Origin: Patescibacteria group bacterium
GTDB lineage: Bacteria > Patescibacteriota > Minisyncoccia > Portnoybacterales > GWB1-42-6
Reading direction: 5' to 3'
DNA length: 64,000 bases
Assembly: GCA_022709865.1 (NCBI GenBank)
Contig: JAKLIA010000002.1
Coordinates: forward strand, 14,521-78,520
Shown here piece after piece: positions 9,767 to 47,932 of the stretch. Both the position numbers and the translations under genes were made by a program. The notes beneath the pieces are model-generated. The model was not told the origin of the DNA and searched no databases. It saw only the letters and a program-made list of their open reading frames with translations. Within the stretch, counting starts at the first letter, position 1, and each line of letters opens with the position of its first letter.

Positions 9767-10053
9767 TTGCGCAAGAGCGTGATTCCTTATGCACTTATTA
9801 TCCGCCTTAATACTTGACAAGCTTTTAGACACTTGGTATCACTAATATATTAGAAATCTAGACATGTTCAAGAAGGGTTGTTTAGGTTTTTTTATTTATA
9901 AAATTAATAATATAAAGTGAAGGCAATGAAGCTCAGTCTTTATGTGGACGCCTAGACCGAGTGGAGCCAACGGCGTAACCGCTCACTCAATAAAGACTGT
10001 TCTGGCGGGCTGATTCCACAATTTACTCGCGGAAACAGCACTTTATAAAAAAA

Positions 10054-16000: not shown

Positions 16001-17862
16001 AAGCCGGAAAGATTTCGGATATCAGTAATATCGCCAATAGAACAACCAGCTCTGATTTACCGACAAACACAAACGTGAATCCGGCGACCGGACAAAATGA
16101 CGGAGCGGTGGCGATAACGGTGACCGGAACAAATTTCGTTGATGGCGCCAATACTTTAAGATTTTCCAATTCCCAAAATTCTTTTGATTTAACGGCAACC
16201 TATATTAGCGCGACCAGCTTAACGGCCTCAGTGCCGGTGGGCACGCCGGTTGGCACTTATAGCTTGAAGGTTATTAATTCCAACGGCACCTCAGCTGCTT
16301 TGCTTTCAGCCTATGAAGTCACAGCCGCGCCGATTCCGCCGCCAACTGTCAACGATGTTATACCGTCAACTGTTGGCACTAACGACACTAATATTAATCT
16401 AACAATTATCGGTTCTAACTTTACGGGCGCGACTTCAGTGACAATCAATGGTGTGGCTCTTGATGTCCTAAGTGTGGATAGCGATACCAGTATCACCGGG
16501 GCGCTATCCGGTATTGGCGTAGCGGGCAGTTATGATGTAAAAGTTACAGCTAATGGCACCAATGAAATGAGCTCGGTTAAATTAACTGTTAAGGCGCCGC
16601 TAATTATTGATTCCACTACCCTGGAACAAACAACTAATGATCCGATTGATTTGAGTACCACCAACACTATTCCGGTTCAAATAACTTTGCAATCCGACGA
16701 CACAATTGTTAATACCGAAACCGTTGGTTCGGTAGAAGTGGTTATTCCACCGGCCACAGAGATATTGAAAGCCGATGGCACCGCCTACACCGGCAACATT
16801 AATCCACCGCAGATCGTTAAGCCGACCGAAGAAATTATCGCTAAAGCCGGAGCTGACGCGGTGGTCATAACGATGGGTAATCCAGAAGAAAAAATTACTT
16901 TTAGCAACGATTTTGTCACGACTGTTACGTTGGAAACAACCAATACCGCGGCTCCGTTAATTTGGTATTATAAACCGGATGGCACATTGGAATTAGCGGG
17001 TAAAGCCGGAATTAAGGATGGAGTGACTTACGCGGTTGGCGGTACGGTTTTAAACACGGTCAATAACGGCTCAATCTACACCTACACTATCGGCATTCTG
17101 ATGGATCATATGTCTAGTTATGTGGCGGGCGTTAATCCGACTATCAGCTCTCTTTCGCCGACTGCCAGTCAGTCCGGCAATACGATAACTATTACCGGCA
17201 CTAATTTTAGTGTTGGCGCCACGGTTACCTTTAACGGAGCAACCGTAATAAGTTCATACTTAAATACCACCAGTATGTCGGCAATCGTACCGGCTAGCAG
17301 CGTAGGAACTTATAATGTAGCCGTAATTAATACCGATGGTTTAAGTAGTAACAATAAGACCTTTGATATTATCCCAGTCCCATACAATCTTACTAGTGGT
17401 GGTTCTTTAGGAGGTAGCAGTGGTACTTCAATGGTGCAACCAACAATTACTGCTCCGGCAACTGAAATTACCGGCCAAGTCTTAGGCGAACAGACATTCG
17501 CGGATGGCGCAATGATCCGAGCGACTAACGGTTTTGATGTTTATATCGTTAAATATACGGGTAATAAAAAGTTTAAGCGCTTAATCTTAAATCCATCGGT
17601 GTTCAATAGCTATCAGCATTTGAAATGGGCCGATGTTCTGAATGTTGACCAAAGCGTGATAGACTCGTTCACAACCTCGGAGTTGGTCCGGGTAGTGGGC
17701 GACACCAGAGTCTACAAGCTGGCTCCAGCTGGTGATACCGGAACCAAGCAATGGGTTAAGACAGCTGCCGCGTTCAACAATAGAAGCTTTGATTGGGATG
17801 CAATCTATGAAATTAATGCCACCGATCGCAACTCCTATATCACCGGCGCAGAGATAGAATAA
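10054..17862 (+). CDS. Giant (2602-aa) cell-surface protein. N-terminal signal anchor; two blocks of right-handed parallel beta-helix (pectate-lyase/NosD-like) repeats; Ig-like and DUF5011-like domains; MBG domains; two FN3 domains; three IPT/TIG-like domains.
   Basis: N-terminal TM/signal (LVFLVAAIIMIGGFFVLFAPPAHA). Repeated NxISGNTI / GIYL beta-helix rungs. NWWGS...YDPWY capping motifs occur twice. ATDNHDGSITV...YTITYNATDSAGN (DUF5011-like). KTYGDE / KTYDGD MBG-type repeats. SWTNP...YYFAIK FN3 repeats (x2). ITVTGTNF...Y..KVIN IPT/TIG-like repeats (x3). No C-terminal TM or LPXTG. Confidence 0.85.
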   Translation: MNKQNRGFVSSVKNAKKGLVFLVAAIIMIGGFFVLFAPPAHAATINVNVACVDTDLETAVCDDGATYRTIQGAIDAAVTGDTVEVAAGIYTEQILIQKDLILTGAGKEATTIKAPAIVRNSAPGYTSTTWSSDNWESDYLLAAYPMALGDSDPTISVKVTGFTFDADNQPGQFSRFTGILFRKVAGSTVADAGLFNSDIKGFASSGSTVTGIRILDGSKLTLDNNTVEKYYMGAISYGTTNLTRPIVNMTNNIFYPNSGNINDDIEYREARAGLISGNTVNYNGMSSSLKYPIVLVSSHGLTVENNILSYAVNGIYIYSNSDSNTISGNTISNCSSNGIYLSNSDSNTISGNTISNVKYSGFGNTIAEVNNGAAGWGIGFDGEYNDGSLIAGTGSNNNTVTGNTVSDSDVAVDVYVGAGNTVNNKNNFSGNFIAVHNNEVALLDATENYWGSATPVWASTISGNITYDPWYADEAMTILSTPEEVYVDDDYKAESAGSHIWGIDAFATIQEGINKVATGGTVNVAAGTYADNLTINKSITINGANAGIAGNASRGSESIVDGGDSGAVVTITADDVTFDGFKVQNSGLTGVEAGIFIQGVSGVNVKNNIVTDNFAGIALAAATLNTVENNALTLNYFGIYVGTDTNPSTGNTIKENDVATTIKTPLGEDKYSGDGIYVDKDCNENIFTDNNVHNNDKDGFYFWKSSNSEVTGNIISGNVAFGIEMKGSSNNAVTDNTITENKDGFHIRNTAEVGYSIIGNNISTNKIYDNTRVNLYTDANQDTNFKAENNWWGSANKTTIESKLAGYGFDLSSETNTTPGTLEYIDFEPYYISNAKDILNTDAVDTVYVDDGYSDNNAGTHSFGYDAFTTIAEGINAVASGGTVNVMAGTYTENLTISKSITILGEDKTTTIIDGNGSGAVVKITANDVALKNFTVQNSGTDILENDGTNGGILVQDATGCTIENNIFTNDLNSVLLLASSSNNVKDNTITGSARYGIVLDYNPLEGDQGTIPSTANTISGNTITLSGRDGIYIGRESDDNIITTNTVSGTVGTDETLVTDNGLEGNGIYFWKSSGNTVTNNTISDNNTNGIEMMGSNNNTITGNSITGNKIGLLARRSDSFVFFPNTFSGNTLTGNTEYAVSTNFTESDGSFIATSNWWGSADYQTIKTKVSNNVDYAPWYVDENKIILSNDVSRKPTITLLSPADGFYSKSETTSHKFKVSDSVDSLISCILHWGEAGSQSFIDVPADSSEFDAGTLTNSDGTTNTWYVTCSDGAGNSGESDHWTFTVDTSAPAEPTIDEVSTPTNISSQTISGTKEANTSVWLNGFEIVSLDGGVNWSYNLSLTEGINEISITTKDAAGNESEAVTSAIIYDTTAPEGTLSINDGAAYTNSSEVTLTVSATDDGSGVKLMAFNNGTGDYSEWEEYATTKTWTLSDNDGAKKVRVKFQDNLGNVTEIGILAEIILDTVAPVITIEPYDDTTPTSQDITVTATADHGSFNENPHTFTENSSFTFIATDLAGNSTSESVEITNIDKEEPVITINGPDVVEIAYGSSYSDAGATATDNHDGSITVISSGVDSVDTSKLGDYTITYNATDSAGNAAVEKTRTVSVVKALLTITANDASKTYGDEKVFAGTEFTATGLQNSDTITSTTIVSSGSDASVFAGSYDIEITDAQGSGLSNYEIAYNKGTLTVNKKALTVTAEANKKTYDGDTVAAAIPVITGTLANSDTAGFIEAYSNANVGTGKTLVPSGIVNDGNDGNNYAVTFVNNTAGIIVAQAPSSFAADSATTNSLALSWTNPNANSNDHYIVKRSASEITAENFDTALTLGGTPIPATGNQGYAVKNLSADTTYYFAIKLVDSLGNTAGISTASGKTLAATDISTDTVAPSAIGDLAAQAGTIATSQIKLTWTATGDDETTGIATKYIIKRSGSTITADNFDAATTVFNSLSPQSAGSAESFTVTGLTSGTTYYFAIKAQDEAGKISDISNIANRTTSSDLPTNTNVNPATGQNDGAVAITVTGTNFVDGANTLRFSNSQNSFDLTATYISATSLTASVPVGTPVGTYSLKVINSNGTSAALLSAYEVTAAPIPPPTVNDVIPSTVGTNDTNINLTIIGSNFTGATSVTINGVALDVLSVDSDTSITGALSGIGVAGSYDVKVTANGTNEMSSVKLTVKAPLIIDSTTLEQTTNDPIDLSTTNTIPVQITLQSDDTIVNTETVGSVEVVIPPATEILKADGTAYTGNINPPQIVKPTEEIIAKAGADAVVITMGNPEEKITFSNDFVTTVTLETTNTAAPLIWYYKPDGTLELAGKAGIKDGVTYAVGGTVLNTVNNGSIYTYTIGILMDHMSSYVAGVNPTISSLSPTASQSGNTITITGTNFSVGATVTFNGATVISSYLNTTSMSAIVPASSVGTYNVAVINTDGLSSNNKTFDIIPVPYNLTSGGSLGGSSGTSMVQPTITAPATEITGQVLGEQTFADGAMIRATNGFDVYIVKYTGNKKFKRLILNPSVFNSYQHLKWADVLNVDQSVIDSFTTSELVRVVGDTRVYKLAPAGDTGTKQWVKTAAAFNNRSFDWDAIYEINATDRNSYITGAEIE
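11011..11121 (+). repeat. Perfect 42-bp direct repeat (two copies, 69-bp period) inside the giant gene, corresponding to duplicated beta-helix rungs
   Basis: aactccgacagcaacactatttctggcaatacaatatctaat occurs at 11011-11052 and again at 11080-11121. The 69-bp (23-aa) period matches the beta-helix coil length. In frame (NSDSNTISGNTISN x2). Confidence 0.8.
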
Positions 17863-25973: not shown

Positions 25974-27005
25974 ATGACTCAAGGAGGGTTGGAAAAATTC
26001 GTGGCTTATCTGCGCCAGAACGGCTGGCCGATTTTTGGGCCGGTTTTCTCAGCTGAAAAAACCGAAGAGGTTTCGCCGTTCTTAGCTGCTCACCAGCCAA
26101 AATCAGCGCATAAAGACGGACAGATCTATATTAAAGAAATCCAAAAAGCTGAAGACCTGGACTTATCCGGGCAATTGCCGTTCTATTCTTTTAAGCGTTT
26201 TTTTGTGCCGGAGCAAGAATGCCTTTTCCAATACGAAAAAGAGAAACTAGACCAGCCGGAAAAAGAACAAAAGGCAGCTTTGCTTGGCATGAGCATTTTA
26301 GACCTGAAAGCGGTTAACCTTTATGATCAAGTCTTTGAAAAGGACCCATATTATCAGCTCCGCCGGCGTAATTTGCTGATAATCGGCTATTCCTTAACTC
26401 CCGAGATACAAGGCAATCTTTTTGAAATAGAATATGAGGAAAATATTTTAGAGCATTTGCCTTTTGATATTTTTTTAGTAAAAACAGATAAAGCCTTTAA
26501 GGTTTTTACCGGCTCGATAAAAGGGCAAAGAGTGCTGGAGGATTTTGGCTATAAAGATTACCAGCATATCCAATACAGCGGGCCGGTCAAAGAAGGAAAG
26601 TTAGAAGAACGGATGGAGCGCTTGCGCGACCGGCTAAAAAACCATCCCAATCCCCAAATCTGGGAGGAGCTGGGCAAGATTTGTATTGAATGCGGCAAAT
26701 GCACCTTGGCTTGCCCGACTTGTTTTTGCTTCCGTATAGACGATAAGCCGGCTTTAAAAGAGGGCGCGGGCAAAAGGACTCGGGAATGGGATTCTTGTTT
26801 TTACCAAGAGTTTTCCGAAGTGGCTGGTGGGCACAAGTTTTTAAAGACCACAGCCGCCAGGATACTTTTTTGGTATTACCATAAGTTTGCCCGAATCCCT
26901 GACGAGTTTGATTTTATGGGTTGCGTGGGGTGCAAGCGATGCGCTAAAGTTTGCCCTGTGGGCATAAATATAGAAGAAGTTTTAAAGAAAATAGAGAACT
27001 CTTAA
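25974..27005 (+). CDS. Group 3b [NiFe]-hydrogenase (sulfhydrogenase-type) beta subunit, 4Fe-4S protein (HydB/AsrA-like)
   Basis: Two ferredoxin-type cluster motifs, CIECGKCTLACPTCFC and CVGCKRCAKVCPVG. Directly upstream of, and stop/start-coupled to, the gamma subunit. Confidence 0.7.
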   Translation: MTQGGLEKFVAYLRQNGWPIFGPVFSAEKTEEVSPFLAAHQPKSAHKDGQIYIKEIQKAEDLDLSGQLPFYSFKRFFVPEQECLFQYEKEKLDQPEKEQKAALLGMSILDLKAVNLYDQVFEKDPYYQLRRRNLLIIGYSLTPEIQGNLFEIEYEENILEHLPFDIFLVKTDKAFKVFTGSIKGQRVLEDFGYKDYQHIQYSGPVKEGKLEERMERLRDRLKNHPNPQIWEELGKICIECGKCTLACPTCFCFRIDDKPALKEGAGKRTREWDSCFYQEFSEVAGGHKFLKTTAARILFWYYHKFARIPDEFDFMGCVGCKRCAKVCPVGINIEEVLKKIENS

Positions 27006-27830
27006 TTGCTGCTGATGAATAATCCCTACGAATCACAATCAGCCAGAATATCTTTTATTTCCAGGCAGACAGACAATATTAAATTGTTCCGTTTTGAATT
27101 GGGCAAAAAAATTAAATACCAACCTGGGCAATTCGTGGAGTTGTCTTTGCCGGGTTTTGGCGAAGCGCCCTTTGCGCCTTGCGGCGATGCCAAAGAAAAC
27201 TATATTGAGCTTTGCGTTAGAAACGCAGGCAAATTAACCGCCAAGCTCCATGAAATGAAGGTTGGGGACAAAGTTGGCCTTCGCGGGCCTTTTGGCAATG
27301 GGGTTTGGCCGTTGAATAAATATGATTTTAAAAAGCAGAAAAATCTTTTTATTGCGGTTGGCGGGCTGGGCTTTGTTCCTTTGCGGACTTTGATCCTTGG
27401 TAAAGACGACTTATTGGGCAGTGGCACAAAAGTGCAGATATTTTATGGCGCCAAATCTCCGGATGATATGCTTTTCCGACACGAATACGACCGGTGGAAA
27501 AAGCAAAACATCCAATTGGAGCTCACGGTGGATAAAGAATGCGTTGGTTGGAAAGGGTGCACAGGGCTGGTTACGACGCTTTTTGACAAACATGAAGTTG
27601 TCCAAAACTCAGTCGCTTTTATTTGTGGGCCGCCTGTAATGTACCGGCCGATATTGGAAAAGCTTCAAAAATTGGGCTTTGCGGATGAGGATATTTATTT
27701 GTCGCTGGAGAGGAGAATGCACTGCGGCATAGGAGTTTGCCAACATTGCGCCGTTGGCCCATACTATACTTGCAAAGATGGCCCGGTTTTCAGCTGGGCG
27801 CAGCTAAAAACCATTCCTGAAGCAATTTAA
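27006..27830 (+). CDS. Group 3b hydrogenase gamma subunit: FAD/NAD(P)-binding oxidoreductase with C-terminal 2Fe-2S (HydG/AsrB-like)
   Basis: Ferredoxin-NADP reductase-like fold (RFELGKKIKYQPGQFVEL, GGLGFVPL). C-terminal CGIGVCQHCAV cluster motif. Confidence 0.75.
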   Translation: MLLMNNPYESQSARISFISRQTDNIKLFRFELGKKIKYQPGQFVELSLPGFGEAPFAPCGDAKENYIELCVRNAGKLTAKLHEMKVGDKVGLRGPFGNGVWPLNKYDFKKQKNLFIAVGGLGFVPLRTLILGKDDLLGSGTKVQIFYGAKSPDDMLFRHEYDRWKKQNIQLELTVDKECVGWKGCTGLVTTLFDKHEVVQNSVAFICGPPVMYRPILEKLQKLGFADEDIYLSLERRMHCGIGVCQHCAVGPYYTCKDGPVFSWAQLKTIPEAI

Positions 27831-27993
27831 ATTAGATAAGCTAATAATTAATAATTAAGATAATTTTTAAGGTTTTATGCGAAAATTCAAGTTAATGGTA
27901 GGAGACGATATAATGGACCTTCTTCCGTCTATCCTGACCGCATTTATCATAATTGCCGGATTTGTCACTTTAATAATAAAAAACTTATAGACC

Positions 27994-28188
27994 ATGTGCC
28001 TCACTATCCCCAAAAAAGTTATTTCAGCTGGAAAGGAGGCTATTGTTGTCAAAGCTGGGGAGAAAAAAGAAATAGTAGCCAGCCTCTTGCCGGTCAAAAA
28101 AGGGGATTGGGTCTTAACGCAGAGCCAAGTCATAATCAAAAAAATAACCGCTAAGCAGGCTAAAGAAATAAATAATCTCATTATTTAA
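27994..28188 (+). CDS. hypC: Hydrogenase maturation factor HypC/HupF family
   Basis: 64 aa beginning MCLTIP (the essential N-terminal Cys2 motif of HypC) and GDWVL near the C-terminus. Confidence 0.75.
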   Translation: MCLTIPKKVISAGKEAIVVKAGEKKEIVASLLPVKKGDWVLTQSQVIIKKITAKQAKEINNLII

Positions 28189-28198
28189 AAACTATCAT

Positions 28199-29104
28199 AT
28201 GCCAAATAAAGGATTTATTTTAGTTTTTTCGACCGCCATAATTTCCGGTTTTTCGGTTTTTATCAATAAGTTCGGCGTGGCGATAAATAATTCCGATATT
28301 TTTGCTTTTGCCAAGATCGCCTTGGTGGCGCTTTTTATCGGAGCGATTATTTTATTTTTTAATAAAAAACAGGAGTTTTTAGAGCTTTCCAAAAAACAGT
28401 GGCTTCATTTGTTTTTGCTTGGTTTAATTGGCGGCTCAATTCCTTTTTTGCTATTTTTCAGGGGGTTGTCGTTAACCGGAGCAGCTCAAGGCGCCTTTAT
28501 CCATAAAACTTTATTTATTTTTGTGGCGGCCGGAGCTGTTATTTTTCTTAAAGAAAAAGTTAATAAGGGCTTTTTTATCGGCGGATTAAGCTTATTGGCT
28601 GGTTTGATGTTAACTTTAAAAAGCTTTAATCTGTCATTTGGCTGGGGAGACTTGCTGATTTTGGCGGCAGTTTTGTTCTGGTCGGCGGAAAACATTTTAG
28701 CCAAACACATCCTAAAAAATCTTTCGGGGAATATGGTGGCTTTTGGCCGAATGTTCTTTGGTGCTATTTTAATTTTTGTTTATCTTGTTCTATCGGGCCA
28801 AAGCGCGCAATTGTTAAGTTTAAGCTGGCCGCAATTTGGCTGGATAGCAATAACCGCCGCCCTGCTTTTAGGCTACACGCTTACCTGGTATAACGGATTA
28901 AAACTCATGCCGGTTTCTGTGGCTACCACGATTTTACTAGCCGGTTTGCCGATAACCACCTTGCTTTCCGCTATAAACGTCGGCCAAGTCTCTGCCAAAA
29001 ATATTTATTCTGGAGCGCTGATTCTAAGCGGTTTAATTTTAATTATGGGCTTTGACCGAATATGGGAAAGAATAAAAATGGTAAAAAAATATGTCCGGTC
29101 CTAA
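28199..29104 (+). CDS. DMT-superfamily (EamA-like) transporter
   Basis: 10-TM pattern with two EamA-like halves. Embedded between hydrogenase genes. Confidence 0.7.
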   Translation: MPNKGFILVFSTAIISGFSVFINKFGVAINNSDIFAFAKIALVALFIGAIILFFNKKQEFLELSKKQWLHLFLLGLIGGSIPFLLFFRGLSLTGAAQGAFIHKTLFIFVAAGAVIFLKEKVNKGFFIGGLSLLAGLMLTLKSFNLSFGWGDLLILAAVLFWSAENILAKHILKNLSGNMVAFGRMFFGAILIFVYLVLSGQSAQLLSLSWPQFGWIAITAALLLGYTLTWYNGLKLMPVSVATTILLAGLPITTLLSAINVGQVSAKNIYSGALILSGLILIMGFDRIWERIKMVKKYVRS

Positions 29105-29807
29105 AATAGCTGCGCTTTACGGGCTAATCCCCAATAAGCTTGGCTTTTGCGGGCCAAAGCAGGAGTTGCTTAAAAAGTTTCTTGTTGGCAAGCTGTCTAT
29201 CCCGGAAATAATCCCGACCCTGGAAAAGTTTGAAGCTGCTTATGCTTATTATCAGTTAATAGCGAAAAAGAATAAAATAAGCAGCCCATTTAATAAAAAA
29301 GTTGTCGAAGCTTATTGGTTAGGGAATGATCTTCTGGATAAGTTCACTGCCAATGATCTGCGGCGGTTTGTTGAAGAAAGGTTTTGCCGGCCAGGGCTTC
29401 TATCCAAGAGTGAAGCTAAAAAACGCGCCCAATTGATTCCGGAAGGGGTAAAACCCCACCATAGCTTCCATGTTTTGGTTTTAGGCTCAATTACCGGCAG
29501 CGTTGATTTTACAGGTAATACTAAGCTAAAGGATATTTGCCGCATTGGCTGGGGAAAGGTAAAGCGAATAATAAAAAACAAGATTGTTATCAGCTACGTG
29601 CCTCTGGCGGGCAAAAAAAATATAAGCTTTGCCCCCCCAACGAACAAAACCATAAATTGGAACAAAGAGATTTTACCGTCGATTGATATTGGGGATTGGG
29701 TTTCTGTCCATTGGAATCACGCTATCCAAAAATTGAATGAAGAAAATATTATTAATTTGTTTAAATATACCCAGGACACATTAAACGCTTTAAATGCCAA
29801 AGAATAA
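29091..29807 (+). CDS. Hypothetical protein with a C-terminal HypC-like motif (GDWVSVHWNHAI)
   Basis: 238 aa. The C-terminal IDIGDWVSVHWNHAIQKL resembles the conserved GDYVLVHVGFAI core of HypC/HupF, but the protein lacks the N-terminal MCxxP. Overlaps the upstream stop and the downstream start, so it is translationally coupled into the hydrogenase operon. Confidence 0.45.
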   Translation: MSGPKIAALYGLIPNKLGFCGPKQELLKKFLVGKLSIPEIIPTLEKFEAAYAYYQLIAKKNKISSPFNKKVVEAYWLGNDLLDKFTANDLRRFVEERFCRPGLLSKSEAKKRAQLIPEGVKPHHSFHVLVLGSITGSVDFTGNTKLKDICRIGWGKVKRIIKNKIVISYVPLAGKKNISFAPPTNKTINWNKEILPSIDIGDWVSVHWNHAIQKLNEENIINLFKYTQDTLNALNAKE

Positions 29808-30564
29808 GAAACCAACCATCGCTATTGTTTCTTTGACCTGCTGCGAAGGCTGCCAGGTGGCAATTTTGGATTTGGGAACCAGGTTTTTAAAATTAGCTGA
29901 ACATATTAAGATCGGGGATTTTGCTTTATTGGAAGACGAGCCGGAAGCGCCAAATTACGACATTGTTTTTGTTGAGGGTTCGCCGATCACCAAAGAAAAT
30001 ATTGAGCGGTTGAAAGATCTGCGCGCCCGCTCTAAGGTTTTAGTGGCTTTGGGCGCCTGCGCGGCGCTGGGCGGCATTGCGGAAATTAAAAATTACCAGG
30101 ATAAGAACGAACGGATGCATTATGTATATAAAAACGTTGAGAGCATTAATAACCCCGATATCAAGCCTTTAAGTTATTATGTAAAAGTTGATTGGGAAGT
30201 TCCCGGTTGCCCTATAAATAAAGAAGAGTTTTTAAAAATCGTTAAACAGCTTCTGGCCGGCGTTCCGCCAACTATTGCCAGGCGCCCGGTGTGTTATGAA
30301 TGCCAGATAAGGCAGAATAAATGCTTATTGCAAGAAGGTTTGCCTTGCCTTGGTCCTTTAATGCTGGCTGGTTGCGGCGCTCCTTGCCCTTCAAGCGGTT
30401 ATCCCTGCGATGGTTGCCGAGGGCCGATTCCGGGCCTAGATCCCGAAAAATTAACGAAACAGCTTTTGTCGCAAAAATACAGCCAGGAAGAAGTGAATCT
30501 GATTTTAGAAAGATTTGGCTTGCAAGATAAGGTCTATCCGGAAGCGCCAACAAAACAATTATAA
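29794..30564 (+). CDS. Group 3b [NiFe]-hydrogenase small (delta) subunit
   Basis: N-terminal proximal-cluster motif IVSLTCCEGCQV and GSPIT. C-terminal Cys-rich region (CPINK...CYEC...C...CLGP...CGAPC...C..C). Confidence 0.75.
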   Translation: MPKNKKPTIAIVSLTCCEGCQVAILDLGTRFLKLAEHIKIGDFALLEDEPEAPNYDIVFVEGSPITKENIERLKDLRARSKVLVALGACAALGGIAEIKNYQDKNERMHYVYKNVESINNPDIKPLSYYVKVDWEVPGCPINKEEFLKIVKQLLAGVPPTIARRPVCYECQIRQNKCLLQEGLPCLGPLMLAGCGAPCPSSGYPCDGCRGPIPGLDPEKLTKQLLSQKYSQEEVNLILERFGLQDKVYPEAPTKQL

Positions 30565-30576
30565 TTTTGTCTTTTT

Positions 30577-31872
30577 ATGCATATTAAAATAGACCACATC
30601 GCTAAAATTGAGGGCCATGCCGGTTTTACGGCTGATATTATCGGTGGAAACGTCAGCAAAGCCCGGATAGACGTTATGGAAGGAGCCCGGCTTCTGGAGG
30701 GCATTTTGCGCGACCGCAGCATTTTTGAGGTTTCGCAAATAACCTCGCGCATTTGCGGGGTCTGCCCGGTAGTGCATAATTTAACCAGCCTTAAAGCATT
30801 GGAGCGGGCATTAAAAATAGAGATTTCGCCGGAAACGGTTTTATTGCGCAAACTAATGATGATGGGGCAAATCCTGAATAGCCACGCTTTGCATCTTTTC
30901 TTTTTTTCTTTATCTGATTTTTTCGGTTTTACTAACGACTTGGCCTTAATAGAAAAATATCCTAATCGCGCCCAGGACGCTTTAGCGCTGCGAGAGTTTG
31001 GCAATAAAATAATTGAGGTTATTGGCGGCCGCTCGATCCACCCATTAACTCCGACCATCGGCGGATTTTTAAAATTGCCCAACAAAGCCAAGCTAGCCGA
31101 ACTTTTCAATGAAAGCGACAAGGCTTTGGCCTCGGCAAAAAACCTAGTTAAACTTTTTCTCAGCCTGGACTACGAAAACTTTAGCCGCTCCGCGCCTTAT
31201 GCCAGCTTAACCCATATAAAAGATTATGCTTTCTATGATGGCTTGATCAAGGCAACGACAAAAGACAAAATTAATCCGGCGGATTTTATGGAAACCATAA
31301 AAGAGCATCAGCTGCAAAACAGCGTGGTCAAGCAATCTTATTATCAGGGCAAGCCCTTTATGGTTGGGGCTATATCGCGCCTGAACAATAACCATAGCCA
31401 ACTAAACCCTGAAGCTAAAAAAGCTTTAAAATCAGTTAAAATAACTCTACCGACTTTCAATCCTTTCCATAATATTTTAGGCCAGGCAATCGAGCTTATC
31501 CACTGCACGGAAGAAGCGCAAAAATTATTGCGCCAGACGCTGCAAAAAGATCTTCAGGAAGAAACAAGAGCCAAGCGCGACGAATTGATACAGGAAAAAC
31601 TAAAAGCCATAAAGAACACCGCCATGGGAATTGATGCCATCGAAGCTCCGCGGGGCACACTTTACTATTTTTATGAAATAAACGGCCAAGGAAAGATTAT
31701 AAATTGCAATATTATCACGCCAACCTCGCAGAACTTGGCTCGCCTGGAAAGGGACCTAGAAGAATATCTGCCGCAGCTAGTCGCCAAAAAAACAATAAAA
31801 AAGGAAATAGAAGAAAAAATTAAAGCGCTGATCAGGGCCTACGATCCCTGCATTACCTGCGCTACGCATTAA
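30577..31872 (+). CDS. [NiFe]-hydrogenase large (alpha) subunit, group 3b-like
   Basis: L1 motif RICGVCPVVH near the N-terminus and L2 motif DPCITCATH at the extreme C-terminus. The stop codon follows the His directly. Confidence 0.9.
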   Translation: MHIKIDHIAKIEGHAGFTADIIGGNVSKARIDVMEGARLLEGILRDRSIFEVSQITSRICGVCPVVHNLTSLKALERALKIEISPETVLLRKLMMMGQILNSHALHLFFFSLSDFFGFTNDLALIEKYPNRAQDALALREFGNKIIEVIGGRSIHPLTPTIGGFLKLPNKAKLAELFNESDKALASAKNLVKLFLSLDYENFSRSAPYASLTHIKDYAFYDGLIKATTKDKINPADFMETIKEHQLQNSVVKQSYYQGKPFMVGAISRLNNNHSQLNPEAKKALKSVKITLPTFNPFHNILGQAIELIHCTEEAQKLLRQTLQKDLQEETRAKRDELIQEKLKAIKNTAMGIDAIEAPRGTLYYFYEINGQGKIINCNIITPTSQNLARLERDLEEYLPQLVAKKTIKKEIEEKIKALIRAYDPCITCATH

Positions 31873-31875
31873 AAT

Positions 31876-32115
31876 ATGCACGATTTTCATTTAGCAGACC
31901 AAATAGTCAAGCTAGCCAAAGAATACGCTGCCAAGAATAATCTAGCCAAAATAACCAAGATCGTGTTAGAATTGGGCGACATTATAGAACACGGAGAAGG
32001 CATCAAGCCGGCCAATTTGGAATACAATATTAAATTATTAATGCCAATAGAAAAAGTGGAAATAAAAAAAATAGAAGGGGATAGCTGGAAATTGGTGAGC
32101 CTAGATGGCGAATAA
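31876..32115 (+). CDS. HypA-like N-terminal domain protein lacking the Zn-finger (79 aa, no cysteines)
   Basis: Begins MHDFHLADQIVKLAKEYAAKNNLAKI, resembling the Ni-binding MHE-start N-domain of HypA/HybF. No CxxC...CxxC is present. Confidence 0.45.
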   Translation: MHDFHLADQIVKLAKEYAAKNNLAKITKIVLELGDIIEHGEGIKPANLEYNIKLLMPIEKVEIKKIEGDSWKLVSLDGE

Positions 32116-32182
32116 AAAAAACACATTAACATCCAAACATTTTAACAAAAATGTTTTTTATATTTGTGTGTTAAAAAATAAA

Positions 32183-33103
32183 ATGCTATACGATCTAATC
32201 ATTATTGGTGCCGGTCCCGCTGGGCTTTCAGCCGCGATCTACGCCGTGCGCAAAAAAATAAAGACCTTGGTCCTAACCGATTCTTTTGGCGGCCAAATAG
32301 TAGATGCTCCTATGGTTGAAAATTATCTTGGTTTGCCGGAAATCTCCGGGCTCGACTTGATAGAAAAGTTCCGCGCTCACGCCAAGAAGTTTGCTCTGGA
32401 GATAAAGGAGAATTGCGAAATACAGAAGATCTCTCCAATGAGCAACGATCTTTTTGAAATAGAAACGGACCTGGGTTCTTTTTCGGCTAAAGCCATAATT
32501 GTTACCAGCGGCAAGAAATACCGGGAGCTCGATGTGCCGGGCGCTAAAGAGTTTGACGGCAAAGGGATCAGCTATTGCGCCACTTGCGATGCCCCGCTTT
32601 TTAAAAATAAGAACGTGGCGGTTATTGGCGCCGGAGATGCGGGGCAGGATGCGGTTTGGCAACTAACCCAATATGCCGCCAAGATCTATTTATTAAATAA
32701 ATATCCCGATCTGCGCGGCGCCAATATCCAAATGCAAGAGAAATTAAAGAGCAATGAAAAAGTTGAGATATACAACAACTACGAGCCGATCGAGGTAAAA
32801 GGCGATAAATTCGTTAAGGCTTTGGTCTTTAAGCATAATGGGCATGGCGAGATCAAAGAGATCGCAGTTAACGGGATTTTTGTGGAAATAGGCTCTGTGC
32901 CAGCTTCAAAGTTTTTAGCCGATATTGTAAAATTAAATGAAAAGGGAGAAGTTGTTATTGACCAAAAAACCAATGAAACTTCCCGGCCCGGCATCTTTGC
33001 GGCTGGCGATATCACCGATATTGCCCATAAGCAAATGATCATTGCGGCTGGCGAAGGCGCCAAAGCGGCCTTAACAGCCTGGGAATATTTAAAAAATAAA
33101 TAA
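32183..33103 (+). CDS. trxB: Thioredoxin-disulfide reductase
   Basis: FAD motif IIIGAGPAGLSAAIY, redox-active CATCD, NAD(P) motif VIGAGDAG, C-terminal GDITD. Start set at the internal ATG 32183 (MLYDLIIIGAG). Confidence 0.85.
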   Translation: MLYDLIIIGAGPAGLSAAIYAVRKKIKTLVLTDSFGGQIVDAPMVENYLGLPEISGLDLIEKFRAHAKKFALEIKENCEIQKISPMSNDLFEIETDLGSFSAKAIIVTSGKKYRELDVPGAKEFDGKGISYCATCDAPLFKNKNVAVIGAGDAGQDAVWQLTQYAAKIYLLNKYPDLRGANIQMQEKLKSNEKVEIYNNYEPIEVKGDKFVKALVFKHNGHGEIKEIAVNGIFVEIGSVPASKFLADIVKLNEKGEVVIDQKTNETSRPGIFAAGDITDIAHKQMIIAAGEGAKAALTAWEYLKNK

Positions 33104-33118
33104 TTAATATAAAACAAA

Positions 33119-33352
33119 ATGATAAAAGTATACAGCACCCCAACCTGCACTTATTGTGTGACCTTAAAAAAGTTCTTGACCGAAAAGGGGATAAAGTTCG
33201 AGGCAGTCGATGTTTCGCAAAACGAAGCCGACTTGCAAGAAATGGTTGATAAATCGGGCCAAATGGGCGTGCCGGTTATTGATATCGACGGACAAGTAAT
33301 AGTCGGCTTTAATCGAAACAAAATAGTAGAGCTATTAAATATAAAAGATTAA
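33119..33352 (+). CDS. Glutaredoxin-like / NrdH-like small thioredoxin-fold protein
   Basis: 77 aa, active site TPTCTYC, C-terminal GVPVIDIDGQVIVGFN. Confidence 0.7.
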   Translation: MIKVYSTPTCTYCVTLKKFLTEKGIKFEAVDVSQNEADLQEMVDKSGQMGVPVIDIDGQVIVGFNRNKIVELLNIKD

Positions 33353-35208: not shown

Positions 35209-36927
35209 ATGTATATTCTCGGCCTTAGCTGTTTTTATCACGATTCATCAGCTGCCTTATTAAGGGACGGCAAAATTGTGGCTGCTGCCGAAGAGGAAAG
35301 GTTTACCAGAAAAAAACACGATAGCTCTTTCCCTCTGAGCGCAATAAATTATTGTTTAAGCAGCCAAGGCATAACTATTAATGACATAGCTTATATAGGT
35401 TTTTACGAAAAGCCGTTTTTAAAGTTTGAGCGGCTTTTATCCCAATATTTAGAAACCTTTCCAAAGGGATTGTGGTCTTTTGTAAGCACACTGCCTATCT
35501 GGTTCAGCCAGAAATTGCGCCTTATAAAAATTGTCCGCAAAAAATTAAAATATAAAGGGAGCGTTTTATTTGTGCCGCACCACCTGGCGCATGCTGCCAG
35601 CGCTTTTTTAATAAGCCCATTCCAAAAAGCCGCTATTTTAACGATTGACGGAGTAGGCGAGTGGTCAACGACAACTTATGGAATAGGCGAAGAAAACGAG
35701 ATCAAGCTGTTAAAACACCTGGCCTTTCCTCATTCCTTGGGTCTGCTATATTCGGCTATCACGGCCTATCTTGGCTTTAGGGTGAACAACTGCGAATATA
35801 AAGTAATGGGGCTCAGCGCTTACGGAGAAAGCGATAAGGACAAAAACCAATATTATAAAAAGCTAAAAAATACCATTGATATAAAGGCTGACGGCAGCTT
35901 CTGTTTGGATATGGATTACTTTTCTTATTGTTTTGCCCAAAAAATGCCGTCAAAAAAACTTTGCCAATTATTGGGCTTGCCGATCAGGAAAGCCAGCGAA
36001 GAACTAACCCAAAGCCACAAAGATATTGCCGCTGCCTTGCAGACGATTACCGAAGAGGTGATCATGAAAATAATCAATCACCTGCATAAAGAAGTTGCTT
36101 GCGAGAACTTGGTGCTGGCTGGCGGCGTAGCTTTAAACAGCGTTTGCAACGGTAAGATCTTAAAAAATGCTCCTTTTAAAAATATTTGGATACAGCCTAA
36201 CGCTTCCGACGGTGGAACAAGCATCGGCGCAATATCCTATATATATAATTCTTTGCTTGGCAACGCCAGAAATTATCAGATGGAGGATGCTTTTCTGGGG
36301 CCATCTTTTTCAAACGAGGAGATAAAAACATTTTTAGATAAAGAAAAAATAAGCTACCAATTTCTTGGCGATAGCGAACTTGTAGAAATAGGCGCAAAAT
36401 TAATATTCGAAAATAAAATTATAGGCTGGTTTCAAGGAAGAATGGAGTGGGGCCCTAGAGCCTTAGGGAATAGAAGCATATTGGCCAACCCCTTAAATCC
36501 CGAGATGAAAGATATTCTAAATAGCCGCATTAAACACCGGGAATCGTTCCGGCCATTTGCGCCGGCTGTTTGCGAAGAATCTGTTTCAACTTATTTTGAA
36601 TGCGATAGCCCCTTGCCTGAAGCCGCCCGGTATATGCTTTTGGTCTATCCCATAAAAGAAGCGTGGCGCAGCGACTTGCCAGCTGTAACGCATTTTGACG
36701 GCACCGGACGTCTGCAAGCTGTGAATAAGGACCGAAACCCCTTATTTTATCGATTAATAGAGGAGTTTAAAGCTTTATCCGGCTTCTCGGTAATTTTAAA
36801 TACCTCTTTTAATACAAATAATGAGCCTATAGTTTGCACGCCAAGCGAAGCGTGGAATTGCGCCAAGCGCGCCGGGCTTAATTATTTGGCCATAGGCAAC
36901 TTTCTAATTAAACTAGATGAAAAATAA
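35209..36927 (+). CDS. Carbamoyltransferase, NodU/CmcH/NolO family
   Basis: Hallmark N-terminus MYILGLSCFYHDSSAALLRDGKIVAAAEEERFTRKKHD, the HHLAHAASAF motif, and a YrdC/Kae1-like C-terminal domain (RMEWGPRALGNRSIL). Confidence 0.9.
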   Translation: MYILGLSCFYHDSSAALLRDGKIVAAAEEERFTRKKHDSSFPLSAINYCLSSQGITINDIAYIGFYEKPFLKFERLLSQYLETFPKGLWSFVSTLPIWFSQKLRLIKIVRKKLKYKGSVLFVPHHLAHAASAFLISPFQKAAILTIDGVGEWSTTTYGIGEENEIKLLKHLAFPHSLGLLYSAITAYLGFRVNNCEYKVMGLSAYGESDKDKNQYYKKLKNTIDIKADGSFCLDMDYFSYCFAQKMPSKKLCQLLGLPIRKASEELTQSHKDIAAALQTITEEVIMKIINHLHKEVACENLVLAGGVALNSVCNGKILKNAPFKNIWIQPNASDGGTSIGAISYIYNSLLGNARNYQMEDAFLGPSFSNEEIKTFLDKEKISYQFLGDSELVEIGAKLIFENKIIGWFQGRMEWGPRALGNRSILANPLNPEMKDILNSRIKHRESFRPFAPAVCEESVSTYFECDSPLPEAARYMLLVYPIKEAWRSDLPAVTHFDGTGRLQAVNKDRNPLFYRLIEEFKALSGFSVILNTSFNTNNEPIVCTPSEAWNCAKRAGLNYLAIGNFLIKLDEK

Positions 36928-38014
36928 ACTGAAACTCTTTACTAAAAACATCTTATTACTAATAGCAACTTGTTTAGTTGTTTTTGCCGTTGCTGAATGC
37001 TTATCCAGGCTGTTTTTTAAGCCGCAAGAGCTTTTTAACGATGTTATTATAACGGCTCCTAAAAATACCGTGGTAAATAAAGATAATGGGCTTTCTTATA
37101 ATTTAACCACCAAGAAATTATTGACAGATAGATATACTCAATTTTTTTCTAATAATCCGCTTATAAAAAAAGAAAAACCGCCAGGAACATACAGAATAAT
37201 CACTCTTGGCGATTCGTATACTCGTGGGGCAGGCACTAAAAATATTTATGATGACAGCTATAGCATCCAATTGATGAAATTATTAAATAGCGGCCAAGAA
37301 ATAAAGGGTATTAGCAATTTTGAGATCCTGCCGATTTGCTATGATGGACTTAACACTTATCAGGAGCTTATTTTACTGCAAGAAATAGCGTTGGCCTATA
37401 ATCCGGATCTGGTCATTTTGCAATACACCGATAACGATGTTGAATACCCCCGCAATGAGATTGGGATAATGAAAAGTTCCGCGGAACATAAAAACGGAGA
37501 GTATTTTCAGTTTCAAAAGTTTTCAAGAATGAACTTTATTATCTATGACAATATATTTATCCCCGCACTGCCTCATTTTGATAACGAACTTGGCTGGCGA
37601 ATGCTAAAATATTCTAACTTTCTTCGCTTTGTCTCTTATAAATTAAATTATATTTTGCGGGAAGAAGAGGTTCCGGAAAATGATATAAACTCCAGCTTCA
37701 AATCTCTTGAAAAGATATCCGAGATAACAAAAGAAAAAAATATTCCCTTGATAATGTTCTATTTTCCGCCAGCGTCATGGACAGAAAATTATTGTGGCAC
37801 CAGGAACGCTGATTTTAGAAAAAGCCTAGCCGCCGAAGCTGCCAAGCTTCAAATTAAATATTTTTCAATGTGCGATTATGTGGCGGACATTAATTCGATC
37901 AGGGGCTTAACCGATGCTCCAAGCAACAACCATTATAATAAAGAAGGTTATGGTATTGCCGCCGAAGTCTTGAAGAACGGGGTTATTGATATTATTAATG
38001 TTGGTATTAAATAA
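36917..38014 (+). CDS. SGNH/GDSL-hydrolase-like protein with N-terminal TM anchor (paralog 1 of 3)
   Basis: N-terminal TM. GDS(L) block IITLGDSYTRGAG. C-terminal His block SNNHYNKEGY. Tandem with two paralogs. Confidence 0.6.
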   Translation: MKNKLKLFTKNILLLIATCLVVFAVAECLSRLFFKPQELFNDVIITAPKNTVVNKDNGLSYNLTTKKLLTDRYTQFFSNNPLIKKEKPPGTYRIITLGDSYTRGAGTKNIYDDSYSIQLMKLLNSGQEIKGISNFEILPICYDGLNTYQELILLQEIALAYNPDLVILQYTDNDVEYPRNEIGIMKSSAEHKNGEYFQFQKFSRMNFIIYDNIFIPALPHFDNELGWRMLKYSNFLRFVSYKLNYILREEEVPENDINSSFKSLEKISEITKEKNIPLIMFYFPPASWTENYCGTRNADFRKSLAAEAAKLQIKYFSMCDYVADINSIRGLTDAPSNNHYNKEGYGIAAEVLKNGVIDIINVGIK

Positions 38015-39103
38015 ATGGCAGGAAAATTAAAGCCGTTATTAAAAAACATACTGCTCTTATTGGCTGCTTGTGCGTTCTTTTTTTTATGCGCCGAGATAGC
38101 TTGCCGGCTGTTTTATGATGAAAAAGTTAATTATACTCCTTGGATATGGGAAAAGCTGCAAGAAGATGGCGCAAAAACTTTTTCCCTCACAGATCAAGAT
38201 ACTTATGTTAATAAAGATAATGGCTTATATTATTTGTTAGATAGCAATTCTTTAAATAAACAGAGATACGCCAGATTTAATTACCAAAAGACAGTAAAAA
38301 AAGAAAAAACAGCAGAAGAATACCGCGTTGCCATCATTGGCGATTCTTTTACCGGCTCTTCTGGTTTATCTCCCGATGAAAAAAACTATACAGCCATGCT
38401 ATCAGAGGCCTTAAATAATGCTGGCCAAAAAAGTTTTAATATCCTTCCTTTTTCCGAAGGGGGAATAAATACCTATCAAGAATTAACTATACTGAAAGAG
38501 TTCTTAGGAGATATAAAGCCCGATTTAGTTGTTCTCCAATATTGCGATAATGACGTTGAAGCGATAAAAACTCCCTATGGAGTAAACAACCATAATCTTT
38601 GGATCGATAGCCGAACAGATCCCATAATACTTGATAAACAAATCGTTCCCGCGCTGCCGTATTTGCCTAAAAGCCTAAGCAAGTTTTTATTGAGCAATTC
38701 GGCTTTCTGGCGTTTTTTTTCTTATAAATTAAATATCATTTCCACTTATTATGTCGACGCCACTGACACAAACTCAAGCCTCGAATCCTTAAAACAGATG
38801 AAACTGCTGCTGGCTAGCAAAGGAATCCCTCTGGTGGTTATCGATTTTCCGCCCGCGGTTAACGAACAAGATTATTGCGGCTATGTGTCTGGGGAGGGTG
38901 GGAAAAAACTTCAAGATGAGATCAGAAAGATGGCCGTAGAATTAAACTTTTCTTTCTTGAGCTTATGTGATTATGTTGATGATATCCATTCTTTGCAATC
39001 CAGCATAGAAAGCAACCATTATCACTATAATACGGAAGGCCATCGCCTTGCGGCCGAAGCGCTAAAAAAAGAGATATTAAACATAACAAAGAATGAAGAA
39101 TAG
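38015..39103 (+). CDS. SGNH/GDSL-hydrolase-like protein with N-terminal TM anchor (paralog 2 of 3)
   Basis: AIIGDSFTGSSG and SNHYHYNTEGH blocks. Same length and organisation as the flanking paralogs. Confidence 0.6.
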   Translation: MAGKLKPLLKNILLLLAACAFFFLCAEIACRLFYDEKVNYTPWIWEKLQEDGAKTFSLTDQDTYVNKDNGLYYLLDSNSLNKQRYARFNYQKTVKKEKTAEEYRVAIIGDSFTGSSGLSPDEKNYTAMLSEALNNAGQKSFNILPFSEGGINTYQELTILKEFLGDIKPDLVVLQYCDNDVEAIKTPYGVNNHNLWIDSRTDPIILDKQIVPALPYLPKSLSKFLLSNSAFWRFFSYKLNIISTYYVDATDTNSSLESLKQMKLLLASKGIPLVVIDFPPAVNEQDYCGYVSGEGGKKLQDEIRKMAVELNFSFLSLCDYVDDIHSLQSSIESNHYHYNTEGHRLAAEALKKEILNITKNEE

Positions 39104-40124
39104 ACTTCTAAAAAATATTATTTTAATTATTATTTCCCTTTTGATAACGCTGTTTTTTTTGGAAACTATTTTTAAGATTTGGGAGATCGATAAAAACATA
39201 AACGGCTCTGTGGTTTGGCCAGAGATAAACCGAATAAGCGGAGAAGGTTTGAATAATAGTTATATAAAAAAAGACAATGGCCTCTCCTACAAATTAGAAG
39301 ATGATAGCCTAAACGAAGATTTGTATATTCTTTTTGATAAGAGCCATTTTACCAAAACTAAACCGCCCGGAGTTTACCGAATAGCCATAGTCGGCGATTC
39401 TTATACCTGGATACCTAAAAATATCGATTGGATAAAGTTTTATGCCCCGCAATTAACAGAAATGCTGTCTAAAGAAAAAACGCTTTTCGAAGTTTTGCCG
39501 TTCGCCCAGCCCGGGCTAAACACCGAGCAGGAGTTCACTATCATCAAAGAGCTCGCTTTAAGTTATAATCCCAACCTAGTGATCCTCCAGAGCACAAACA
39601 ACGACAATGAATTGCCTAGAGCCTCCTTGCGTTTAGGCCCATCCACAGAATACGTAATTTCTAAAAGCGAAGTTATCGTCATTAACAACCGCGCTATTCC
39701 GGCTTTTTCTTTTTTGAGCCATAAAATAAACCTATTCATCCTTCAAAACTCGTCCTTCTTGCGCTATATCGCTTATAATTGGAACGTTATATTATATAAA
39801 TATCAGGCTCAGCCCTGGCAAAAAAATCTTGATACCATAAAAGAAATAAAAAAAATTACGGAAGAAAAAAATATTGATTTTTTAGTTATTTTTACTCCAT
39901 CAGCATTGAATAACCCCTGCGCCGAAGAAACCATTAAAAGCTTGGGCGAACAATTTAAGAGCCTGAGCGAAGAGATCAAAACCCCTATCCTTAATCTTTG
40001 TGATAATGTTCTGGATTTTAGCGCTTATAAGGCTAAGGAAGGGGACGGCCACTACAACACCGAAGGATATAAAATAGTAGCCGAAGCTTTAAAAAACGAG
40101 ATATTAAAAATAATAAAAAAATAA
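39093..40124 (+). CDS. SGNH/GDSL-hydrolase-like protein with N-terminal TM anchor (paralog 3 of 3)
   Basis: IAIVGDSYTW and DGHYNTEGY blocks. Confidence 0.6.
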   Translation: MKNRLLKNIILIIISLLITLFFLETIFKIWEIDKNINGSVVWPEINRISGEGLNNSYIKKDNGLSYKLEDDSLNEDLYILFDKSHFTKTKPPGVYRIAIVGDSYTWIPKNIDWIKFYAPQLTEMLSKEKTLFEVLPFAQPGLNTEQEFTIIKELALSYNPNLVILQSTNNDNELPRASLRLGPSTEYVISKSEVIVINNRAIPAFSFLSHKINLFILQNSSFLRYIAYNWNVILYKYQAQPWQKNLDTIKEIKKITEEKNIDFLVIFTPSALNNPCAEETIKSLGEQFKSLSEEIKTPILNLCDNVLDFSAYKAKEGDGHYNTEGYKIVAEALKNEILKIIKK

Positions 40125-45399: not shown

Positions 45400-46902
<1,503 letters not shown>

Positions 46903-47142: not shown

Positions 47143-47428
47143 GCCCCTCACTTGAAAAGGATATGTTTTATGTTTATGTCCTAAAAAGTGAAGTAGATGA
47201 TAAACTGTATATTGGCTATACAGATGATCTACGACGCAGAATTGAAGAACATAGCAAAGGAAAGTCAAAGGCAACAAATCCAAGGAAACCATTTAAGCTG
47301 GTTTATTACGAGGCCTACTTCTCCCGAAGCGATGCTAAATATAGGGAAAGTCAATTAAAAAGATTTTCTGGTTCATACACACATCTGAAAAGAAGAATTA
47401 AAAATTCAATCCTTTTCAAGTGAGGGGC
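47143..47428 (+). mobile_element. GIY-YIG ORF cassette bracketed by a perfect 20-bp inverted repeat, inserted at the 5' end of tRNA-Ile
   Basis: Left arm gcccctcacttgaaaaggat (47143-47162) and right arm atccttttcaagtgaggggc (47409-47428) are exact reverse complements. The 11-nt gggcgattagc is directly repeated at 47134-47144 and 47425-47435; the second copy is the start of tRNA-Ile. Confidence 0.5.
47163..47423 (+). CDS. Small GIY-YIG nuclease-family protein (86 aa)
   Basis: MFYVYVLKSEVDDKLYIGYTDDLRRRIEEH: the GIY-(10 aa)-YIG spacing and the conserved Arg and Glu of the GIY-YIG fold. The stop codon lies inside the right IR arm. Confidence 0.8.
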   Translation: MFYVYVLKSEVDDKLYIGYTDDLRRRIEEHSKGKSKATNPRKPFKLVYYEAYFSRSDAKYRESQLKRFSGSYTHLKRRIKNSILFK

Positions 47429-47656: not shown

Positions 47657-47932
47657 ATGAAAAAGAGACTGGAATGTTTTATTTTTGGCCGAGTCCAATT
47701 GGTGATGTTTCGGGATTTTACCCAGCGCAAGGCTAAATCTCTGGGCTTGGTTGGCACGGTTAAGAACCTGCCGGATGGCTCGGTTTTTGTGGTGGCGGAA
47801 GGCGAAGAAGAAAAACTTGCTCGGCTGCTAGAAAAATTAAAAAAAGGTTCTTTATTATCCCGGGTAGACAAGCTTGAAGAAAAATGGCTGCCAGCAACAG
47901 GGGAGTTTATTAATTTTAAAATAGTATTTTAA
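47657..47932 (+). CDS. Acylphosphatase
   Basis: 91 aa. The GRVQLVMFRDFTQRKAKSLGLVGTVKNLPDGSV pattern resembles the acylphosphatase VQGVxFR / GxVxN signatures. Confidence 0.7.
   Translation: MKKRLECFIFGRVQLVMFRDFTQRKAKSLGLVGTVKNLPDGSVFVVAEGEEEKLARLLEKLKKGSLLSRVDKLEEKWLPATGEFINFKIVF

Follow-up and report, generated by a model that had tools for sequence, protein, structure and literature searches.

How does a [NiFe]-hydrogenase reach its mature form when its large subunit is made without the C-terminal tail that usually has to be cut away? This question is raised by a hydrogenase operon in a 64-kb stretch of a Patescibacteria genome (contig JAKLIA010000002.1, positions 14,521 to 78,520; hereafter the window, meaning the whole 64,000 nucleotides analysed), in which the gene for the alpha (large, catalytic) subunit ends with the last residue of its C-terminal ligand motif. 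In textbook accounts, a tail together with the protease that removes it provides the last step of [NiFe]-hydrogenase assembly and its quality check. We consider it likely that this large subunit, which belongs to group 3b, is encoded at its mature length, that the proteolytic step was lost along with the protease gene, and that Hyp-based maturation proceeds without cleavage.

From position 31840 the letters run TAC GAT CCC TGC ATT ACC TGC GCT ACG CAT TAA, followed by AAT and by an ATG at 31876, and translate to Y-D-P-C-I-T-C-A-T-H-stop. An earlier note, made from the letters of this DNA alone, had described a NiFe large subunit with its stop codon directly behind DPCITCATH; the letters at 31840-31872 (ending GCT ACG CAT TAA) bear out the ending, and the two ligand motifs together with the profile matches bear out the identity. 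The open reading frame (ORF) matches Pfam NiFeSe_Hases (5.7e-37), and in NCBIfam it is matched best by the models of the sulfhydrogenase alpha subunits ShyA (8.7e-84) and HydA (3.9e-78), both alignments stopping four positions short of the end of the model. Residues R58, C60, C63 and H67 of the N-terminal motif and D423, P424, C425, C428 and H431 of the C-terminal one are invariant in our alignment A1. A protein identical to alpha is on record from a metagenome-assembled genome (MAG) of Candidatus Portnoybacteria, within the Candidate Phyla Radiation (CPR)/Patescibacteria.

Alpha, beta and delta fit the ShyABCD/HydABDG models better than other NCBIfam families, with scores below the equivalog cutoffs, and the best NCBIfam match of gamma is the generic hydrogenase gamma-subunit model, again below its equivalog cutoff. 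The closest solved structures of alpha are Thermococcus kodakarensis HyhL (3.5e-71) and the alpha subunit of Pyrococcus furiosus soluble hydrogenase I (SHI; 1.8e-68), followed at lower ranks by 7t2r (1.5e-48) and by enzymes of the Mvh/Vhu type (2e-45, 4e-41), the NAD-reducing type (1.6e-39) and the F420-reducing type (1.1e-38). By these affinities we assign the enzyme to the four-subunit, sulfhydrogenase-type group 3b (NAD(P)-coupled) [NiFe]-hydrogenases.

The ending is shared by the close relatives of alpha. Among its best 120 database matches, which are 54-100% identical to it and come from many samples and sources, 118 contain the motif and all 118 end at the same histidine, none having an extension; the remaining two have a variant or truncated end. 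Across 13 tail-less loci the stop codon after the histidine varies (TAA, TAG or TGA), the downstream DNA is unrelated, and reading on in the +1 or +2 frame or past the stop brings up no tail resembling the usual FLxVxF. We take the ending at His431 to be a true feature of the gene, neither chance nor error. In a broader library with one representative per 50%-identity cluster, of which the best 150 were considered, 42 of the 133 motif-bearing representatives lack a tail. Most other group 3b sequences in this library have tails of 4-14 amino acids, typically of 7-9 residues (e.g. FLEVKFV) or of four (e.g. VARL, IVRL). On a neighbour-joining tree of the library approximately 47 tail-less leaves, including the query, form one clade, and a few further tail-less sequences are scattered elsewhere. 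The sister sequences of this clade carry tails, and one sister cluster contains an Aenigmarchaeota protein; its own named members are mostly Patescibacteria, besides single MAGs labelled Thermoleophilia and Korarchaeota. The segment before the [RK][IV]EG motif is shorter in tail-less enzymes (median 9 versus 12 residues) in a sample dominated by one clade, and is only a hint that a shorter N-terminus goes with tail loss.

Some of the database relatives are fusions. The tail-less large subunits P0128 and P0143 (also P0165 and P0197) are fused N-terminally to a truncated small subunit (Oxidored_q6, about 150 amino acids), an arrangement reminiscent of the CPR 'hyd2' type in fused form. P0252 and P0267, and probably P0230, are group 3b large subunits with a HycI-type protease domain of their own at the C-terminus, so that P0252 and P0267 unite substrate and protease in one chain; P0134 has an FmdE domain fused there in place of the protease.

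The earlier note had further stated that the locus contains no protease gene and that the missing extension implies maturation independent of a protease. We built a protease hidden Markov model (HMM), starting from the protease-like C-terminal domains that three fusion proteins among the matches carry, and ran it iteratively over the ORFs of 80 related loci (five of them from CPR), all of which, like the loci counted below, are among the matches listed; two of its matches proved to be Pfam HycI. No HycI match was obtained for any ORF of the window, over the 31 kb upstream and 32 kb downstream of alpha, part of the ORFs having been checked against the protease only by the local HMM or by eye, and a six-frame scan for a protease remnant found none (best match E 2.4). 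We then compared the surroundings (±10 kb) of the 75 group 3b large-subunit genes for which 700 bp or more of sequence was available downstream. A protease gene is present in the locus of 54 of the 66 tailed genes, and directly downstream in 49 of the 66, as against none of the nine tail-less genes, the window gene included (Fisher p = 2.3e-6 when a protease anywhere in the locus is counted and 2.5e-5 when it has to be adjacent, on gene counts that are not independent events). In a neighbour-joining tree built from the locus sequences, at least four separate lineages contain the tail-less genes, and each lacks a protease gene: an actinobacterial group, the CPR group with an Archaeoglobales MAG, a Dehalococcoidales MAG and a Gemmatimonadota MAG. 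The tail-less large subunits from Gemmatimonadota, Archaeoglobales, Dehalococcoidales and actinobacterial MAGs (L013, L028, L041, L045, L047 and L051) have no protease gene in any of their loci. The distribution points to repeated loss of the tail within group 3b. Tail loss and loss of the neighbouring protease coincide, as protease-independent maturation predicts. Thus, the first statement of the note is confirmed by the window itself, and the second is supported by this together with the uniformly tail-less homologues and the contrast between tailed and tail-less loci.

What, then, would complete the large subunit? The operon runs beta, gamma, HypC, EamA transporter, DUF6390, delta, alpha, mini-HypA, a thioredoxin-reductase-like gene and a glutaredoxin gene, an order kept in L081 and L083 (alpha 67% and 58% identical), although no HypC gene was called in L083. 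The HypC gene was located by phmmer with the HypC sequences of L002, L003 and L012 and is kept at the same position in L081; its length, its Met-Cys start and its profile score mark it as a genuine member of this class of small OB-fold (oligonucleotide/oligosaccharide-binding) proteins of about 65-90 amino acids. Lying between gamma and EamA, it overlaps a longer, spurious minus-strand ORF (27867-28181) and is hence easily missed. The gene for the DUF6390 protein lies within the hydrogenase operon in the window, L081 and L083; those of its best 120 homologues that are named are all labelled Patescibacteria or unclassified bacterium, and a literature search returned no paper on the family. It is a possible new maturation factor.

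The third accessory gene, mini-HypA, starts 3 nucleotides after the alpha stop, where tailed operons carry the protease gene, and because of this short distance is probably translationally coupled to the large subunit. It lies downstream of alpha in the window and in L001, L002, L004, L081 and L083. Its NCBIfam score, like its Pfam score, is below cutoff; the profile of its family (136 homologues of 78-85 amino acids, with an MHD start in 115 of 120 and no cysteine in 78 of 120) matches T. kodakarensis HypA (3a43) at 2.3e-6. The protein has no CxxC pair, of which the zinc domain of HypA has two. An AlphaFold model (mean predicted local distance difference test score, pLDDT, 93.3) gave 13 top Foldseek matches in the PDB that are all HypA, with query-normalised TM-scores of up to 0.79 and the zinc domain skipped. 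The predicted structure identifies mini-HypA as the nickel-binding domain of HypA with the zinc domain excised. Zinc-less HypAs of about 80 residues with an MHD start are also encoded at L061:3691-3954, L071:11764-12006 and L023:12256-12501, all in tailed, protease-bearing operons of Omnitrophota and Hadarchaeota; mini-HypA is therefore not tied to tail loss, and we dropped the idea that it is a substitute specific to tail-less enzymes.

Other hyp genes adjoin the hydrogenase in related genomes. HypC, HypD and HypE lie beside tail-less large subunits in the CPR loci L002 and L012, and therefore the lineage keeps the canonical cofactor machinery. What may be no more than the Kae1-like C-terminal part of HypF, lacking the YrdC, zinc-finger and acylphosphatase domains, is encoded next to them (L002:8826-9938, minus strand, 370 amino acids; L012:4009-4353, minus strand). 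In the window, split HypF functions were considered for the NodU-type carbamoyltransferase (35209-36927) and for the acylphosphatase (47657-47932). The idea found no support: both have genes for glycans and the cell wall as neighbours, and L081 and L083 have no such carbamoyltransferase in their neighbourhoods.

With HypC, DUF6390 and a zinc-less HypA in the operon, maturation genes that the earlier note had overlooked, the ordinary chaperone route appears to be kept and only the proteolytic step dropped; and since the large subunit is already of mature length and no protease is encoded locally, this step would have been lost from the lineage. Translation ends at the histidine behind which other enzymes are cut by an endopeptidase of the HycI/HybD/HoxW type. 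The operon-encoded HypC would deliver the Fe(CN)2CO group, with HypD, HypE and HypF presumably encoded elsewhere in the genome, as the hyp genes beside the hydrogenase in two other CPR loci suggest, and mini-HypA would deliver nickel. The active site would then close and the small subunit dock without cleavage, as in the regulatory hydrogenase of Ralstonia/Cupriavidus, which, though tail-less, is supplied with a normal cofactor by the Hyp proteins (PMC7294309); natural tail-less hydrogenases in general use the canonical Hyp machinery (PMC7294309, PMC7654741). More speculatively, DUF6390 may act as a second HypC-type chaperone that keeps the apo-large subunit open, part of the tail's job elsewhere. 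In immature HyhL, as summarised in the part of PMC7294309 that cites Kwon 2018, the tail fills the position of the N-terminal strand, and the N-terminus, displaced by it, forms a protruding arm by which HypA is held; tail-less enzymes would have to reach this state by some other route. The order of these events, the role of DUF6390 and the activity of the enzyme are what we infer from the genes. A stronger version, in which DUF6390 of the CPR hyd1-type enzymes takes over the holding and checkpoint role of tail and protease and the zinc-less HypA inserts nickel without HypB, amounting to a third, undescribed finishing route, we regard as rather unlikely.

Several points weigh against maturation without a protease. 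The association of tail and protease counts loci rather than independent evolutionary events, the trees are quick neighbour-joining trees, and the absence of the protease covers the 64-kb window, the visible part of the genome, in which HypB, HypD, HypE and HypF are missing as well. Twelve of the 66 tailed genes are also without a protease gene in their locus. In Escherichia coli Hyd-2 and in the soluble hydrogenase of Ralstonia eutropha, nickel is no longer inserted once the tail has been removed (PMC7294309), and such nickel-free engineered truncations mean that a tail-less state is no guarantee of function.

The strongest rival builds on some of these points and holds that an endopeptidase encoded elsewhere still joins maturation with nothing to cleave, perhaps recognising the nickel-loaded subunit in the manner of a chaperone. 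The 12 tailed genes imply that proteases can be encoded at a distance, and only 64 kb of this genome are in view; however, no protease lies within 10 kb of any of the nine tail-less genes from at least four lineages, nor in the 31 kb upstream and 32 kb downstream of alpha. Small CPR genomes, moreover, rarely retain functionless genes. A Salmonella protease can bind its large subunit without the peptide, according to the passage of PMC7654741 that cites this result, and given this a distant protease may still have a role. On balance we find this rival improbable.

That alpha is a sensor-like or degenerate relative rather than a working catalytic hydrogenase is less probable still. The tail-less state is typical of regulatory hydrogenases such as the group 2b sensors, and HypD, HypE and HypF were not seen in the window; but alpha retains the four cysteine ligands and the other invariant residues, its family is strongly conserved over hundreds of homologues, and its best solved relatives are catalytic group 3b enzymes. 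It also belongs to an operon of the NAD(P)-linked sulfhydrogenase type that has all of beta, gamma, delta and alpha together with maturation genes. No histidine kinase or response regulator adjoins this operon, the nearest being more than 16 kb away (9332-9727). Membership in group 2b is rejected by the group 3b best matches, the diaphorase-type beta and gamma subunits and the lack of an adjoining kinase gene. Membership in Ech/group 4 is rejected by NuoD models that score alpha at 9.5e-6 or worse and by a Pfam scan that found no membrane antiporter-like subunits in the operon. The likeness to sensory and Ech hydrogenases that had been drawn at the outset therefore holds for the logic of maturation and fails for the type of enzyme, which is a four-subunit sulfhydrogenase and no sensor.

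[quoted passage not shown] The two ORFs are in frame (31876 minus 30577 is 1299 nucleotides, or 433 codons) with only the stop and one codon between them (TAA AAT ATG); in relatives, however, the alpha and mini-HypA genes lie 78-460 nucleotides apart, with several in-frame stops in the spacer of L081, the genes out of frame in L001 and another gene intervening in L002 and L004. No recoding signal is evident, and TAA ends ordinary genes throughout the window. We dropped this idea, the gene arrangement not being conserved in relatives. An error of sequencing or assembly, or a truncated pseudogene of a truly tailed protein, is excluded for practical purposes: metagenome-assembled genomes do contain errors, but all 118 close homologues with the motif, from many independent samples, share the ending, their stop codons differ, shifted frames and the DNA past the stop hold no usual-type tail, all ligand residues are intact, and a conserved HypA-like gene begins 3 nucleotides later.

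The coordinates of the operon and of the other features are collected in Table 1. The EamA gene holds the same operon position in L001, L081 and L083; a tie of this transporter to metal or cofactor supply is only a guess. The flavoprotein and glutaredoxin pair is kept downstream in L081 and L083, with other genes intervening, which suggests a link of the hydrogenase to thiol redox metabolism. Farther off, a 2602-residue ORF (10054-17862) is directly preceded by a c-di-GMP-II riboswitch (9910-9993, plus strand; 64 bits, exceeding the gathering score). The region 35209-40124 on the plus strand encodes a NodU/CmcH-type carbamoyltransferase, three paralogous ORFs of 343-365 amino acids and a large membrane protein; the first of the three paralogues, the sole one scanned, has a weak GDSL/SGNH hydrolase match below the Pfam cutoff, and the region is probably a glycan-modification cluster not related to HypF. 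The tRNA-Ile and tRNA-Ala genes behind the 16S rRNA are followed not by a 23S rRNA but by the acylphosphatase gene; the rRNA genes seem not to be linked, and a mobile element may have inserted into the spacer.

Table 1. Positions of the hydrogenase operon and other features in the window, counted from its first letter
Feature	Position	Strand	Remarks
hydB-type beta subunit (4Fe-4S dicluster, AsrA-like)	25974..27005	+	Pfam Fer4_22 4.2e-31; NCBIfam sulfhyd_ShyB 8.1e-41
hydG-type gamma subunit (FAD/NAD(P)-binding, AsrB-like)	27006..27830	+	Pfam FAD_binding_6, NAD_binding_1, DHODB_Fe-S_bind; NCBIfam hydrogenase gamma subunit 3.5e-64
HypC chaperone	27994..28188	+	64 aa, begins MCLTIPKK (Cys2 present); Pfam HupF_HypC 2.5e-13, 50.4 bits against a cutoff of 28.5
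EamA-family membrane transporter within the operon	28199..29104	+	Pfam EamA 1.8e-27
DUF6390 protein, N-terminal helical and C-terminal HypC-like OB-fold domain	29091..29807	+	invariant Cys20 and HHSFH (N-terminal), Cys150 (HypC-like)
hydD-type delta (small) subunit	29794..30564	+	Pfam Oxidored_q6 3.8e-24; NCBIfam ShyD 4e-45, HydD 5.3e-45
hydA-type alpha (large, catalytic) subunit	30577..31872	+	431 aa; naturally without C-terminal extension
N-terminal nickel-iron ligand motif RICGVCPVVH	30748..30777	+	residues 58-67
C-terminal ligand motif DPCITCATH	31843..31869	+	residues 423-431; the chain ends with His431
TAA stop codon, directly after His431	31870..31872	+	
mini-HypA, 79-aa nickel chaperone domain	31876..32115	+	begins MHD; no zinc-finger domain; Pfam HypA 2e-5, below cutoff
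thioredoxin-reductase-like flavoprotein	32105-33103	+	Pfam Pyr_redox_2 3.6e-36
glutaredoxin	33119-33352	+	Pfam Glutaredoxin 4.6e-19
16S rRNA	45400-46902	+	
GIY-YIG endonuclease-like ORF	47163-47423	+	after 16S rRNA, then tRNA-Ile, tRNA-Ala (region to 47639)

The need for the tail is still debated (PMC7294309), and a group 3b enzyme, T. kodakarensis HyhL, is the source of the structural model of its function. A large natural group 3b clade without tail and protease, along with at least three further independent losses within the group among the matches listed, offers closely matched natural pairs of tail-less and tailed enzymes in which to ask what replaces the tail; HypC, DUF6390 and mini-HypA form a short list of candidates. 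For annotation, a missing protease in a CPR genome is no evidence of a non-functional hydrogenase, and in heterologous production tail-less enzymes should need one helper fewer.

Among known systems the window enzyme is a member of the CPR group 3b clade 'hyd1' (Jaffe et al. 2020, PMC7304191), which comes from the same organisms and has the same gene set, with large and full-length small, beta and gamma subunits and a neighbouring family similar to HypC. The main text of that paper does not contain the words 'C-terminal', 'protease' or 'maturation', and the missing tail, the missing protease and mini-HypA are undescribed there. Literature searches found no paper on hydrogenase maturation in Patescibacteria and nothing relevant on Mycobacterium smegmatis Hyd3 with an endopeptidase; the Frankia hyhGB-hupSLD cluster is a group 3b operon that includes a protease.

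P. furiosus SHI (PDB 9nez/9e15) and T. kodakarensis Hyh (5yxy) have the same four-subunit architecture and ligand motifs and align with the window enzyme from end to end. The HyhL and SHI alpha precursors are 428 residues long, with the match ending at residue 424 and the four residues after the histidine removed by an endopeptidase, and the deposited SHI alpha chain has 424 residues and ends at the corresponding histidine. Since the processed end of these enzymes is the conserved histidine, the window gene encodes their processed length; its protein differs from both in lacking the tail and in a slightly shorter N-terminus. The 3b and the 4d enzyme of T. kodakarensis share a single protease (PMC7654741).

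Mini-HypA shares with HypA (PDB 3a43, 6g81) the Met-His-acidic N-terminus and the fold of the nickel-binding domain; it differs in lacking the zinc-binding domain, in having Asp3 for Glu3 and in its length (79 versus 113-139 amino acids). The DUF6390 protein resembles the second HypC paralogues HybG, HoxL and HupF, each a chaperone of one particular large subunit, in its HypC-like OB-fold, in the conserved cysteine at the start of that domain and in the presence of a canonical HypC alongside. Unlike in these proteins, the cysteine is internal (residue 150, not 2), and there is an extra 130-residue helical domain with its own invariant cysteine and HHSFH motif, for which no matching structure was found.

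The natural groups known to be without an extension are the H2 sensors 2b and 2d, the carbon monoxide dehydrogenase-linked 4c, Ech (4e) and 4g (PMC7294309); group 3b is not among the tail-less groups named there. These end at the conserved histidine, as the window enzyme does; they need no proteolysis and have a cofactor inserted by Hyp proteins, but they belong to other phylogenetic groups, with other partners and another physiology (sensing, membrane-bound energy conversion). Our finding is probably a further member of this known protease-independent class, not pointed out for group 3b in the literature searched. The engineered R. eutropha HoxG-proc and HoxH and E. coli HybC end at the same histidine as well, but as artificial truncations, of which HoxG-proc still matures, less efficiently, and truncated HoxH and HybC stay nickel-free (PMC7294309). 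In contrast, the tail-less state described here is natural and evolutionarily stable, and probably makes a genuine, if modest, addition to the hydrogenases known to dispense with cleavage.

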